This document shows, in pieces, positions 36,186 to 41,124 of a DNA stretch of 64,000 nt. The first letter of the stretch is position 1, and every line of letters begins with the position of its first letter. This stretch comes from an uncultured Nitrososphaerota archaeon (GTDB lineage: Archaea; Thermoproteota; Nitrososphaeria; Nitrososphaerales; CADDZS01): assembly GCA_963799845.1 (NCBI GenBank), contig CAWCYI010000004.1, forward strand, positions 1,248,001-1,312,000, written 5' to 3'. The notes beneath the pieces were generated by a model. That model had not been told where the DNA came from. It worked only from the letters and a program-made list of their open reading frames with translations, and searched no databases. Made by a program: the position numbers and the translations under genes.

Positions 36186-36881
36186 TTGAGCACATTTTCT
36201 CCCTTCAAAAGATGTATTATGCCCCACTTCCCTAACAGACTTGTGCTTGAAGTCAAGCTCCTAGTTGAGGCGCCCAAGGATTGGATCAAAGAAGTCAATC
36301 GAGGTCATTCCGCATTTGTCAAGATTACTGACATCAGGAGCTCGGGCACGTCTCGAGCCGTACAGAACTTTGTCGAGATTTCTTCCCCAAAGATCGGAGC
36401 TGACGAGCTGATTAAGGCGATCAGCGCCTCAAAGGACATCAAGGATGTGGACTTGGTTCGCCTAGATCCACACCGCATTGTCGGGATGATAACTACTCAG
36501 GACTGTCCAGTCTGCTCGACTCTTTCGGGCTTGAATTGTTCGATGCTTTCTGCCTCAACTAGGGACGATGGAAAGATGGAATGGAAAGTATTGATCAGCG
36601 GAGAAGACACTCTGAAGAAGATAACAGTGAGACTGGAAGCTAATCGGGTGTCTTACAAGATTCTTGGACTCACGCACCTTACAGCAAAGAACGATCTAAC
36701 CGCAAGGCAGGAGTACATAATCAAGATTGCTTTTGAACTCGGATACTTCGAGTTTCCGAAAAAGATAAAGCTTGAGGAACTCTCAACTAGGCTAGGAATT
36801 TCGCCCGGAACACTTTCCGAAATACTGAGAAGAGCTGAAAAGAACATCCTTTCCAAGTACTTCCGAGGCCATCACGAGTAG
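36186..36881 (+). CDS. Bat/HTH_10-family transcriptional regulator with a Cys cluster
   Basis: LTARQEYIIKIAFELGYFEFPKK...LSEILRRAEK; CPVC...C. Confidence 0.88.
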   Translation: MSTFSPFKRCIMPHFPNRLVLEVKLLVEAPKDWIKEVNRGHSAFVKITDIRSSGTSRAVQNFVEISSPKIGADELIKAISASKDIKDVDLVRLDPHRIVGMITTQDCPVCSTLSGLNCSMLSASTRDDGKMEWKVLISGEDTLKKITVRLEANRVSYKILGLTHLTAKNDLTARQEYIIKIAFELGYFEFPKKIKLEELSTRLGISPGTLSEILRRAEKNILSKYFRGHHE

Positions 36882-37113: not shown

Positions 37114-37917
37114 CTAACTAAACGACAGCAGAAATTCACAGTACGGGTCGCCCATCGAAGCGCACTTCACTTCTGTACATTTCATTTCGGTGGCGAATAA
37201 GTGGGTCGATAGCCCGGCAAGATGCCCTCTGACGAACTGGCTGTACGGTTTGCTTTTCTTTTCCTGTCCCATGCACTCAAAGTTCTCGTCGATTCGTATC
37301 CTCGCGGAAAGCTTCTCGAACTCGACTTCGGCGATTCTTGCTTTGCCCCAGCCGAGGGATGAGTACAGATTAACGAGGTCCTCGATACGGTTCAATACGC
37401 TTCCTTCGCCGAATATCCGGATCAACTCTTCAGCGTCGTTTTGACCCGCGGAAAATCCCTGCTTGTATAGCATGACGTCGCCTCCCGTATTGAATATCTG
37501 GCGTATTTCGTTCATGCTACTTGCGATTACTTCGCTGCGCATTACAATCGCCCTCTGTCCCTGGCTCAGCTTGAGTGGAAAATTCAGCGAGTCGACGATG
37601 AGCCCGTCATTTGATTCTCGAACCGTTATCTCAGATGCGTAAGCGGAATCCTGGATCAGTCCTTTGATCTGCTGGGCGGTCATTTCACGGTTCTGAGCTT
37701 CTACGAATAAGCCGACAGATCTGTCTACCTTGTCTTTTTCTTTGGGGTCTTCTATCCCAGAAATAAATCCGCCCAAAATATTGACCTTATATTTGGCTAG
37801 CGAAACGGTAATGTCCGCAAGGGCTCCTGGAACGTCCCTTAGTTGAAGCACGATATGGAAAAGTCTAGCACGTGGTTTATAGACGTAGCTGATAATCTCT
37901 TTCGGCACGGTTTTCAA
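37114..37917 (-). CDS. ACT plus V4R domain protein
   Basis: LRDVPGALADI...VNILGG (ACT); GWG, NFEC, RGHLAG and EVKCASMGDPYCEF (V4R). Confidence 0.88.
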   Translation of the reverse strand: MKTVPKEIISYVYKPRARLFHIVLQLRDVPGALADITVSLAKYKVNILGGFISGIEDPKEKDKVDRSVGLFVEAQNREMTAQQIKGLIQDSAYASEITVRESNDGLIVDSLNFPLKLSQGQRAIVMRSEVIASSMNEIRQIFNTGGDVMLYKQGFSAGQNDAEELIRIFGEGSVLNRIEDLVNLYSSLGWGKARIAEVEFEKLSARIRIDENFECMGQEKKSKPYSQFVRGHLAGLSTHLFATEMKCTEVKCASMGDPYCEFLLSFS

Positions 37918-38659: not shown

Positions 38660-39178
38660 TTGTCTCAAGGCCTTACGGATAAAATGGGAGATATCGGAAA
38701 TGGAATACTCGATGGAATAAGCAAGGGGCTCGACGCCATTGGTTCAAACGTTGAACAGGTGTTCTATTCTGAAATGATGCTCTCCCACAATCTCACCAAA
38801 AACGAGATTCTCGAACGGCCCGAGGAGTTTACAGAGGCAATGTCCAAGTTTTTCAGGGCCGGCACTATGCTGGTCGACAGAGCCATCGGCCGGGAAATAG
38901 TGAAGAATTTTGGAATCCCGGTATGTCCCGGTATAAATTTCAAAACCGCTATGGAGATCGTAATGAAACTTCCCGGGACGAAGAAAAAACCGGAGGGAAC
39001 TCAGGGATACGACCCCAACCTTTGCAAGACCTGTCAAAAGCTTGGAAGACCAGACCCGACGGTCGCGAGGGCGCCTTTCAGCGACTGCCAAGAGCACTTT
39101 ACGAAAAGGGTGATGGAATTGAAAAAGACTGTCACGACGGTGGGAAACCTTCACGTGAATCCCCTGTTCAATCTTTGA
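38660..39178 (+). CDS. DUF3227/NitrOD5-like protein with a C-terminal CxxC...C..H extension
   Basis: GLDAIG...ILERPEEFTEAMSKFF..G...VDRAI; CKTC...DCQEH. Confidence 0.55.
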   Translation: MSQGLTDKMGDIGNGILDGISKGLDAIGSNVEQVFYSEMMLSHNLTKNEILERPEEFTEAMSKFFRAGTMLVDRAIGREIVKNFGIPVCPGINFKTAMEIVMKLPGTKKKPEGTQGYDPNLCKTCQKLGRPDPTVARAPFSDCQEHFTKRVMELKKTVTTVGNLHVNPLFNL

Positions 39179-39207
39179 CCGCCTCGAAAATTTGGCCGAC
39201 GACTGCT

Positions 39208-39268
39208 TCATTCTTTCGATGGTACACTAGGAAATTCGAAGTTATGCATCATCTTGATCAGCCATTTG
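39208..39268 (-). pseudogene. 3' fragment of the SgcJ/EcaC (SnoaL-like) gene split by IS110
   Basis: KWLIKMMHNFEFPSVPSKE*, in frame with 40761-41124 once the element is removed. Confidence 0.85.
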
Positions 39269-39369
39269 ACTGACTCCTAAGGCTTGCTGCAAGGCTGTCC
39301 CTTCGCCTCGCGACTCCAGTCAGTGTTGGAGTCGCTACTTGTTCGTTCGCAAAATGAGGTGTAGGAGAA

Positions 39370-40494
39370 ATGATGAGAAATAAGAGTAAGAAGATTATTC
39401 GAAGAAGTATGAGTAGCAATTGCGTAATCGCAGGAATTGACCTGGGCGATAGTAGCAGCCTTGCAACCGTTCTCTCTCCAGTCGGAGAGATCGCAGACAG
39501 GTTCTCCTTCCAGATGGATGAAGCGGGGTACGCCCTGTTCTCAGACAGAATTCCAAGGGATGCGAGGTTAGCTTTTGAAGCTACCAGCTCGGCATATCCG
39601 TTCTCAAGAATGCTCAAGGAACTAGGATACCACGACATAACTGTAGCTCATCCTACTGAACTTGCCTGGATCGTCAGATCAAAGAAAAAGAATGATAGAG
39701 CTGATAGCTTAAAGATAGCCAAGCTCCATCTAGCGGGTCTGTTGCCCGAATCTCATCTTTTGGCTCAAGAGGAGCAGATAGAAAGAGACCTCTTGATTCA
39801 GAGGGTAAAGCTCGGATCAGAGATAGGTAAAATCAAGAGCAGAATCATAAGCTATCTCAAGAGGGAAGGAGTGTTCGAATCTCTCCCGAAGAGCAAAGAT
39901 AACTTCTCTGCTAGAAGGAGGGTTGCAATCGCCTCAATGAAATTCAACGATGACAGAGACCTCGTGCTGAAAACCATGGTTGAGAGACTCGAATTCATGG
40001 AGAAGCAGTGCGAGCCGTTGGAGCAGAGGATAATGAAGAACGCGAAGGACAACAAATACGTCAGGATGATAATGTCTATTCCTGGCATAGATTACTACCT
40101 CGCTTCGCTATATTCTTCGTACATCGGAGATCCACACCGCTTTCCGTCTTTTGATCACGTCGCAAGCTTCCTCGGGATAATTCCAGAGAGCAAGGATAGT
40201 GCAAACGTCAGGAGGAGAGGAAGAATGTCCAAGGACGGACCTTCCATTGCGAGATGGGCTCTGGGCATAATGACCGACACGGTGCTGCTCTACAATCCGA
40301 ATATCAAGGTATACTACAACGGCGTCAAGCAGAGGACGGGTCGCGGGAGCTACGCCCATGTGCTAGTGATGAAGAAGTTAGCTCGCATGATCCATCACAT
40401 GATGATTACGGAGGAGAACTACAAGTGGGAGAACGAGGCGCTAACAGAAGCAAAGATCTCAAGACTCGATGCCGCTGGAGGTGAATCAGCCTAG
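39370..40494 (+). CDS. IS110-family DEDD recombinase/transposase
   Basis: IAGIDLG, AFEATS, KNDRADS (DEDD); SIPGID and LGIIPESKDS. Confidence 0.95.
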   Translation: MMRNKSKKIIRRSMSSNCVIAGIDLGDSSSLATVLSPVGEIADRFSFQMDEAGYALFSDRIPRDARLAFEATSSAYPFSRMLKELGYHDITVAHPTELAWIVRSKKKNDRADSLKIAKLHLAGLLPESHLLAQEEQIERDLLIQRVKLGSEIGKIKSRIISYLKREGVFESLPKSKDNFSARRRVAIASMKFNDDRDLVLKTMVERLEFMEKQCEPLEQRIMKNAKDNKYVRMIMSIPGIDYYLASLYSSYIGDPHRFPSFDHVASFLGIIPESKDSANVRRRGRMSKDGPSIARWALGIMTDTVLLYNPNIKVYYNGVKQRTGRGSYAHVLVMKKLARMIHHMMITEENYKWENEALTEAKISRLDAAGGESA

Positions 40495-40728
40495 CGGAAC
40501 AATTGGGATGGAGTTGCAGGCCGAACCATTTGGAGATAATTGAGCCATAGAGCTTTTCCATTTGAGTGTGGCGCCCCGCCTCCGTTAAATCGTCAGAATA
40601 CGCCTAGCTTTGTACTAGAGCGTTTATCGAGTGTATGCGGAAAAGGTGAGGGCAGGTCTGTTCAGCTAGCCCTAGTCCAAACGCTAGCTTGATAAGCGGG
40701 ATGAACGATCTCAGAGATAGAGCAGGTT
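40495..40728 (+). ncRNA. Candidate bridge/seekRNA region of the IS1111-type element
   Basis: Long non-coding right end containing segments that match the reconstructed target (CCATTTG, AGATAA) and donor junction (TGAGTG, GTCAG). Boundaries not determined. Confidence 0.55.
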
Positions 40729-40760
40729 AGGCGAAGGGACAGCCCTAAGCCTTAGATGAG

Positions 40761-41124
40761 TGTTATCTTCTTTAGTCATGAAGAAATTGATCAACCCCTT
40801 TCGCAAAGGACGTGGATTGCCTGCACGATCTAGAGCTCCCGTCATGCTCCACAATAGGTCGACAGAGGCAATGGTTGGATTGACAAGTCTGATATTGATA
40901 TCCTCAATTGTTTGATGACTGTTCTTGAATACTGTTTCAAAGGACGGTGCGTGGAAGCTCTCTATACCCTGCCTTCCCTTTGCAGTCATGCCAACCACAT
41001 TCGAAAAGAAGGATTCCTCAGCGAACACTGAAGCGAAGGCATGAGCGTCGTGATGATTCCACGCATCTACGAAACGGTAGATCACTTTTCGAATGGAATC
41101 TTCTGCTTCGACAGAGTTTATCAT
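40761..41124 (-). pseudogene. SgcJ/EcaC-family NTF2-like protein, 5' part, disrupted by IS110
   Basis: DAWNHHDAHAFASVFAE...GRQGIESFH...FKNS; sequence after MTKEDN is IS-derived. Confidence 0.88.

Follow-up and report, generated by a model that had tools for sequence, protein, structure and literature searches.

An IS1111-type insertion sequence in an archaeal genome and the predicted guide RNA in its right end

The DNA described here is a stretch of 64,000 nucleotides, called the window below, from an uncultured Nitrososphaerota archaeon (contig CAWCYI010000004.1 of assembly GCA_963799845.1). Positions are counted from its first letter, and features are on the + strand unless stated otherwise. 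From 39269 to 40762 the window contains an intact and recently active insertion sequence (IS) of the IS110 family and the IS1111 type. The element measures 1494 bp, which includes the TG core at its right-hand end. A gene for a transposase or recombinase of 374 amino acids occupies 39370..40494. This leaves 101 nt of non-coding DNA on the left (39269-39369) and 268 nt on the right (40495-40762). The right non-coding end is predicted to encode a guide RNA, and that prediction is the subject of this report.

The borders of the element can be read directly. On the left it adjoins one half of its target plus the core, AGCCATT-TG (39260..39268), and on the right it is followed by the other target half, TTATCTTC (40763..40770). 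The left junction is AGCCATT-TG|ACTGAC (39260-74) and the right junction is AGATGAG-TG|TTATCT (40754-68), with a TG core at both. A preliminary description of this DNA, made from its letters alone, gave the same target halves and element ends. Related elements have these ends in common, TG|ACTGA... on one side and ...ATGAGTG on the other, and in all tabulated loci the left flank ends in TG and the left junction is TG|ACT. A repeat search also found two subterminal inverted repeats, at 39293..39308 and 40729..40744. They lie 24 nt inside the left end and 18 nt inside the right end, and are 100% complementary over their 16 nt.

The element is not alone in its genome. Searching the assembly at the DNA level turned up a second copy, on a different contig (G000:C6, the C6 copy below), 100% identical over window positions 39262-40773. 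The identity begins at 39262, within the left target half. The preliminary description had proposed comparing the flanks of other copies, and the insertion site of the C6 copy is indeed related, ATCCACT-TG-TTATCTCC. Its left flank is unlike that of the window beyond ATCCACT-TG, and its right flank beyond TTATCTCCTTT. Two copies at different loci with a matching site motif, CCAyTTG|TTATCTyCTTT, imply two insertions of the element. The genome has no exact empty target site; there are 5 sites with at most one mismatch to the 13-base rebuilt core, versus 1 for the reversed control.

A third, divergent copy lies at G000:C4:2116337-2117622 (loci L092, L093 and L176). It was found both by protein search and by the RNA covariance model R1, which is discussed below, and it has 52-59% protein identity. 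Its transposase match is split across two reading frames, which suggests a frameshift.

The transposase matches two Pfam families above their cut-offs, PF02371 (Transposase_20, E = 2.1e-16) and PF01548 (DEDD_Tnp_IS110, E = 7.5e-09). It also matches the NCBIfam model NF033542, 'IS110 family RNA-guided transposase', with 161.2 bits against a cut-off of 140. Residues D24, E70, D109 and D112, the candidates for the DEDD catalytic tetrad of an N-terminal RuvC-like domain, lie inside the PF01548 match and are invariant in an alignment of five sequences (A3). A profile made from the protein and four relatives aligns the C-terminal domain to the transposases IS621 (8wt6) and ISCro4 in the Protein Data Bank (PDB); the alignment to the IS621 structure spans the C-terminal part only. 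It places GIIPESKDS opposite GLTPRRYES of IS621 chain 8wt6_A, and in the resulting G--P----S motif G269, P272 and S277 are invariant in A3. We take the Ser of IS621 that is equivalent to S277 to be its catalytic Ser. The residue after the motif Ser is A in this protein, not G. For this place Siddiquee et al. give SG, TG and occasionally TA (PMC11187229).

The assignment to the IS1111 subgroup is based on two features of the sequence, the subterminal inverted repeats and the longer downstream non-coding region. A 16-nt inverted repeat together with a long non-coding region downstream of the gene is a published hallmark of the group (PMC11187229 section 6; PMC11208160 section 12). The published repeats of the subgroup are subterminal, 7-17 bp long, and have short terminal extensions (PMC11187229).

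To see what is conserved in the right end, relatives are needed. Genome contigs and metagenome contigs were scanned once each, which gave 86 loci with 51-86% identity, numbered with an L below. A 14-base anchor in the right end is common to almost all loci long enough to include that part. The RNA alignment (A4) consists of 187 nt cut around this anchor. With identical copies merged and four loci omitted as too short, it has 49 distinct sequences. One locus, L009, was excluded. It ranks second in closeness among the relatives from genome records, with 75% protein identity, and keeps the left end and the gene, and its right end (L009:3614-3811) diverges just after the position of the first guide described below and scores 14.8 bits with R1. 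It is probably a truncated or rearranged copy.

Aligning the right ends and folding them with RNAalifold, also proposed in the preliminary description, yields a conserved structure, with the two true target guides in its loops. RNAalifold finds five helices, the same ones that were read by eye, with double changes in 20 of 33 pairs. This was extended to a structure of 38 pairs in 8 helices. Over the 49 sequences, 94.9% of its 1809 cells are standard pairs, versus 27.9-51.1% if the 3' partners are slid by 1-3 columns, a comparison in which the structure has an edge since it was partly derived from the tested sequences. Double changes do not depend on that edge, and changes on both sides occur in 21 of the 38 base pairs. 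When columns were shuffled, 0 of 500 shuffles reached the observed value on any of five measures. The RNA strand is the + strand, because the frequent G-U pairs fit that strand only.

The structured core of this predicted bridge RNA or seekRNA runs from 40504 to 40672, judging from A4, RNAalifold, the pair counts and R1; the R1 match in the window spans 40500-40697 with 147.1 bits. Pair counts give an outer stem, P0 (40504-07 with 40669-72), followed by P1 (40512-22 with 40655-67). Helices 1-3 have 87.8-96.2% of their cells paired, and in helix 3 there are double changes in 5 of 8 pairs. Two arms follow, each a predicted internal loop between a closing stem and an inner hairpin. The closing stem of the first arm, that of the target-binding loop, is CCAT (40526-29) with GTGG (40568-71); this helix 4 is 100% paired, and its CCA/UGG is invariant in 49 of 49 sequences. 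The inner hairpin of this arm, GAGC ... GCTT (40542-55, helix 5), is 93.4% paired and shows an AU/GC switch in 17 sequences.

The second arm, that of the donor-binding loop, stands on P2 (40574-80 with 40645-51) and has its closing stem at 40581-85 with 40637-41. These are helices 6 and 7, which are 95.8% and 97.6% paired, with double changes in 9 of 11 pairs. The inner hairpin (40600-23) is ACGC ... GCGT with a CTAG/CTAG extension. Its helix 8 is 98% paired and has a GC/AU switch in 17 sequences, and relatives replace the extension by CGAC/GTCG or CACC/GGTG. According to the coordinate map, four loop strands remain single-stranded: 40530-41 and 40556-67 in the first arm, 40586-99 and 40624-36 in the second.

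In its own genome, R1 finds this RNA only inside the three copies of the element; the third copy carries an RNA of its own (137 bits). Against 74 distant loci (L014-L087, nearly all labelled bacterial) and two loci of the same phylum (L089, L090), R1 gave no match at E up to 0.01, which means no more than that any RNAs they have differ too much for this model. A cmscan of 39000-41000 against Rfam at E up to 10 found nothing in the right end and four weak matches, all in the coding region on the minus strand.

The loop strands of the first arm resemble the DNA around the element. Strand 40530-41 varies freely among relatives and is the reverse complement of each element's own right flank. In the window the right target guide (RTG) is GGAGATAA at 40532..40539, the reverse complement of TTATCTCC, and it fits the right flank in 8 of 8 positions for the C6 copy and 7 of 8 for the window copy. 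Other RTGs that match their own flank are GGGTCCA in L097, TTACCGCC in L143, TGGCACATGC in L162 (core included), TAGGCTAA in L129 and CGCACACAC in a large subgroup. Strand 40556-67 instead has the same sense as the left flank plus TG, for example TCTCCTG in L098, TAGGTTTG in L126 and GCCGTTG in L011. The left target guide (LTG) of the window is TCCATTTG at 40557..40564, in the same sense as left target plus TG core, and matches each of the two genomic left flanks in 7 of 8 positions.

Both guides covary with the flanks. The measure used was the mean best local match, with one flank per distinct guide and 5000 permutations; since related elements are not independent, the permutation counts overstate significance. 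For the RTG against core plus right flank (30 distinct guides, 51 unique pairs) the observed value is 7.03, and permuted values are 3.32 +/- 0.25. For the LTG against the left flank (18 distinct guides, 50 unique pairs) these numbers are 6.17 and 3.40 +/- 0.28. Neither observed value was reached in any of the 5000 permutations. Controls on the wrong strand are null, as 625 and 4716 of 5000 permutations reach what was observed.

Individual elements tell the same story. Close relatives with different guides occupy correspondingly different sites, as in L143 versus L096 and L106 versus L126. The third copy is an independent confirmation of the match between guide and DNA: 9 bases of its RTG region, the G of the core among them, are the reverse complement of the right flank of this copy. 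Five more divergent loci that only R1 found (L147, L150, L154, L161 and L168) have guides that behave likewise, as judged by eye.

The large subgroup mentioned above comes from metagenomes (L102-L135 and similar loci, about 63% protein identity) and has some peculiarities. Its target is ...TGGTG-YG-CACACAC..., often with GTGTGTG upstream, and looks like a repeated palindromic or microsatellite-like sequence. The left junction is always TG. The right junction is mostly CG, and TG in a few loci (L116, L118, L122 and L135). Opposite the first core base, the LTG of this subgroup has U and the RTG has G, which suggests that a YG core is read with tolerance for wobble pairs. A further observation concerns its donor loop. 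In L104, L107, L114 and others, CTCAAT or CTCGTT on the 5' side is complementary to ATTGAG or AACGAG just after GCGCC, with compensatory changes. Such an alternative pairing would enclose the TCAG discussed below, and it is absent in the window's subgroup.

The insertion site in the window also touches a gene. An open reading frame (ORF) with a SnoaL-like/DUF4440 match in Pfam lies on the minus strand at 40711-41124 and overlaps the right end of the element by 52 nt. The IS therefore supplies the stop of this ORF and the 17 codons before it, and the insertion appears to have replaced the 3' end of the gene. SnoaL-like genes could have supplied the target as a conserved coding motif, but this was rejected: at the C6 copy and in several relatives no ORF of that kind crosses the junction, and the ORF that holds L096 is unrelated.

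The broad claims of the preliminary description hold up well. It had proposed an IS110/IS1111-type recombinase with a TG core and a right-end RNA with readable guides, and the protein families, inverted repeats, compensatory changes and strand-specific covariation support this. All the strings that it listed are where it placed them: AACCATTTG at 40524-32, AGATAA at 40534-39, CCATTTG at 40558-64, TGAGTG at 40563-68 and GTCAG at 40592-96, and also GGCG at 40570-73 and CGCC at 40577-80. AGATAA, which it related to the right target, is part of the RTG. The CCATTTG at 40558-64, which it related to the left target, turns out to be the LTG. Both lie in loop strands and covary with the flanks on their side.

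Its map of the loops, which it had itself called uncertain, was wrong in three of five items: the choice of left target guide, the left donor guide, and a GGCG/CGCC hairpin. For the first, it had read AACCATTTG as a target guide. The CCAT in it is in fact the 5' strand of the invariant closing stem, paired with GTGG at 40568-71, and elements with a different left target, such as L098 and L010-L013, have it unchanged. Only the last G of this string, along with the next G, belongs to the RTG. TGAGTG at 40563-68, taken for the left donor guide, lies in a stretch TGA.T.TGG that is invariant whatever the right terminus. Its first TG is the core end of the LTG and the only guide part, and the GTGG is stem. 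In place of the supposed hairpin, the consensus has two long-range stems, 40568-71 with 40526-29 and 40574-80 with 40645-51. The preliminary description had also argued that CCATTTG occurs twice by more than chance. That argument is weak by itself, as the 64-kb window has 9 of them versus 8.92 expected; it is true that three of the nine lie at or in the element (39262, 40526 and 40558).

The actual left donor guide (LDG) is GAGTG at 40629..40633. It reads in the same sense as the element's final five bases, which are GAG plus the TG core (40758-62). Loop strand 40624-36 has the sense of the right terminus of whichever element carries it, with GAGTG in the window, GAATG in L010, ATACGTG in L138 and ATACGCG in the large subgroup. 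In the third copy the LDG, ATGGGTG, again equals the terminus. By the same test as above, the match of LDG to right terminus is 5.94, with permuted values of 4.19 +/- 0.31 and 0 of 5000 reaching it (16 distinct guides, 19 unique pairs). Columns 170 and 171 of the RNA equal the variable terminus positions 6 and 7 in 47 of 47 pairs, and column 173 equals position 9 in 94%.

The right donor guide is harder. The candidate is GTCAG at 40592..40596, complementary to CTGAC at 39270-74 in the left end. TCAGA occurs unchanged in all 49 RNAs, and its TCAG is complementary to the CTGA of the left end, which is nearly invariant. With both sides this constant, covariation is unable to test the pairing. It is plausible that GTCAG is a right donor guide of 4-5 nt. 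Two other arrangements were tried by eye, a bulged pairing of AAT-CG-TCAG with CTGAATT and a same-sense match of donor loop to left end. Each fits some elements and fails in others, the window included.

The left end offers something else to consider. Between the left inverted repeat and the start codon, at 39310..39335, most relatives have a hairpin, GCGACTCCA / TGGAGTCGC, which in the window has GTCAG in its loop. It forms in the single-sequence fold, and compensatory changes in its stem are seen by eye, for example in L097, L098 and L154. In the relatives that have the hairpin, the loop always contains NTCAG. The base N in the NTCAG of this loop equals the base before the TCAG of the RNA donor loop in 37 of 37 distinct combinations (G/G in 34, A/A in 3), an agreement that rests on just two independent changes. 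By eye there is one further C/C case and one discordant, decayed copy. The third copy has TTCAG in the hairpin and GTCAG in its RNA.

Several results weigh against a target-and-donor guide RNA of this kind, or at least against parts of it. A fold of the single sequence beats shuffles only modestly (z = -1.75) and does not recover the target-binding first arm, although it does recover P0, P1, P2 and the second arm. No archaeal-type promoter was seen by eye in the sequence upstream of 40504. The RTG score is just 5 in L095, L098, L099 and L101, and by eye the RTG region of L172 has no match at all to the right flank. Regular expressions were used to extract loop strands, termini and flanks, and a locus dropped out if a pattern did not match or its contig stopped short; the relatedness of the elements behind the permutation counts counts here as well. 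On the donor side, mutual information was computed between left-end positions 1-10 and every RNA column, and no signal of complementarity emerged in the donor loop. Nine elements with the left end ACTCA retain TCAG in their RNA, which is a mismatch and argues mildly against GTCAG as right donor guide.

These last points bear on how the right half of the donor, which is the left end of the element, is recognised. This archaeal clade may differ from IS621 here, with one and the same recombinase module reading NTCAG twice, in the loop of the RNA and again in the hairpin at the left end. We regard this as unlikely. The hairpin could act as extruded DNA, or as a mimic in the 5' untranslated region (UTR) that regulates the transposase. 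If true, such a double reading of NTCAG would amount to a way of recognising the donor, or of autoregulation, that the IS110/IS1111 literature compared here does not describe.

Another reading is that only the first arm guides, as a seekRNA of some 80-100 nt that chooses the target. The protein would then read the element ends through the inverted repeats, and the second arm would be scaffold. IS1111 seekRNAs that co-purify are 82-96 nt long and are described by their target matches (PMC11187229 section 9; also Table 1 of PMC13604230, as far as the available text of that source goes). The right donor guide shows no covariation, and 16-nt inverted repeats could well be protein sites. It is the LDG that speaks against this. 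It equals the right terminus at two variable positions in all 47 pairs, beats all 5000 permutations, and does the same in the divergent third copy. Donor-binding nucleotides have moreover been reported in IS1111 bridge RNAs (Durrant et al., PMC11208160 section 12), and the available text of PMC13604230 also gives forms of 148-172 nt for IS1111 elements. We consider a guide for the target only improbable.

Covariation and structure counts cannot tell RNA from single-stranded DNA. One could therefore imagine that the right end acts as folded single-stranded DNA, which pairs with target and ends during transposition. The protein however belongs to a family whose RNA guides have been shown biochemically and structurally, and the structure follows the gene immediately, on its coding strand, just as published IS1111 elements have it (PMC11187229). 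We give a DNA guide hardly any credence. The same goes for a right end that is a structured 3' UTR or a protein-binding site and guides nothing, with flank matches due to chance or inherited with the insertion site: it can point to the ordinary count of CCATTTG in the window and to the one earlier match that coincided with a conserved stem, and it is strongly disfavoured by the 30 distinct RTGs and 18 distinct LTGs that match their own flanks on the expected strand only, by the close relatives whose sites differ along with their guides, and by the two copies that have the same site motif at two loci of one genome.

What remains, and what we consider very likely, is an intact archaeal IS1111-type element whose right end gives a guide RNA of about 170 nt for both target and donor, used by the bound recombinase for insertion at a TG core. 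We infer the RNA nature of the guide, its binding by the recombinase, the circular intermediate and the chemistry of strand exchange from what is known of the family. The right non-coding end would be transcribed on the + strand, probably as the 3' portion of the transposase transcript. The RNA would fold as a three-way junction, in which a closing stem P0/P1 bears two arms, each an internal loop with a hairpin as its cap. In the donor loop, the invariant (G)TCAG on the 5' strand would be complementary to the start of the element's left end. The RNA-bound DEDD/Ser recombinase would then bring the circularised element and the target together, and strand exchange at the TG core would give an insertion without target duplication.

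Guide RNAs of this family are not new. The IS1111 group, with for example ISEc11, ISPa11, ISKpn4 and ISPst6, likewise has its guide RNA in a long non-coding region downstream of the transposase gene, and also shares the subterminal inverted repeats, the dinucleotide core and the lack of target duplication. Durrant et al. predicted bridge RNAs in 93% of the IS1111 elements in ISfinder, in the right end (PMC11208160 section 12). In IS1111 seekRNAs, the match to the top strand lies 5' of the match to the bottom strand (Siddiquee et al. 2024, PMC11187229 section 9). Both loops described here follow this IS1111 order (PMC11187229), which is the reverse of that in IS621 (PMC11208160). The length of about 170 nt is similar to the long forms of 148-172 nt given for IS1111 RNAs in Table 1 of PMC13604230, within the part of that source available. 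There are differences too. The host here is archaeal, and the transposase has 374 amino acids versus the 330-350 quoted for the group (PMC11187229). In IS1111 elements the donor-binding nucleotides are often found in a multi-loop (Durrant et al. 2024, PMC11208160 section 12), whereas here they would lie in a simple internal loop of a three-way junction, a comparison made with the text of that paper.

The core of IS621 is CT, unlike the TG found here. Its bridge RNA (structures 8wt6-8wt9) is otherwise alike in having target and donor internal loops, in its strand logic and in including the core, and its DEDD plus Ser recombinase has a C-terminal domain that can be aligned to the transposase in the window. 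The guides were named after the definition of Durrant et al., in which LTG and LDG pair with the bottom strand on the left, and RTG and right donor guide (RDG) with the top strand on the right, core included (PMC11208160). In this element, unlike in IS621, the RNA lies in the right end and its 5' side reads the top strand. The inverted repeats of IS621 are 2-3 bp, versus 16 nt here.

Two more distant systems were compared through sources available in part. ISPpu9 of Pseudomonas putida, with its small RNA Ssr9 (PMC12288879), also belongs to the IS110 family, has a gene for a small RNA after its transposase gene, and takes a repeated sequence as target. As far as the available text describes it, that system is bacterial and has extra orphan copies of the RNA, whereas the RNA found here by R1 in its own genome is confined to the three element copies. 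Box C/D guide RNAs with Nop5 have been proposed as distant relatives of IS110 systems in the accessible part of Vaysset et al. (bioRxiv 10.1101/2024.06.21.599552). The likeness lies in a small structured RNA of an archaeon whose bulged loops hold paired guide segments. The protein here retains transposase domains. This is a resemblance and not a membership. Kink-turn or C/D-box-like motifs were looked for in the loops by eye and none was found, as no tandem G-A pairs could be placed beside the closing stems.

That the host is an archaeon is well supported by several features of the assembly, though this is only 86.7% complete, in 9 contigs. The closest relatives of the transposase in genome records have 61-76% identity and are all titled Thaumarchaeota archaeon, archaeon or uncultured archaeon. 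The next matches, at 24-32%, are nearly all labelled bacterial. The assembly has a single small-subunit rRNA match, to a partial gene that lies where a contig ends (G000:C1:25-823). This gene scores 459 + 173 + 42 bits with the archaeal Rfam model, higher in sum than the 535 bits of the bacterial one. Upstream of the element and unrelated to it are two genes, at 36186-36881 (+) and 37114-37917 (-), that encode an HTH_10 DNA-binding domain and a V4R domain, both presumably typical of archaea.

Archaeal members of the family are known as proteins. Vaysset et al. count 662 archaeal IS110 recombinases and, in the part of the preprint available, attribute them to several transfers from bacteria (bioRxiv 10.1101/2024.06.21.599552). 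In the literature searched no description of a bridge RNA from an archaeal element was found; the supplements of Durrant et al. may list some.

The known mechanism is unchanged by this element, which is a real yet expected addition to the bridge RNA and seekRNA recombinase systems already described. It adds a well-resolved natural family of such recombinases from uncultured archaea of soil and sediment. The base-pair-level model of the RNA, with about 30 naturally reprogrammed pairs of guide and target, shows which loop positions are free to vary. This is useful for annotation, where the RNA has no Rfam model and NCBIfam names only the protein. It also aids the choice of new orthologues for programmable DNA insertion, and it bears on how the guide layouts of IS110 and IS1111 diverged.

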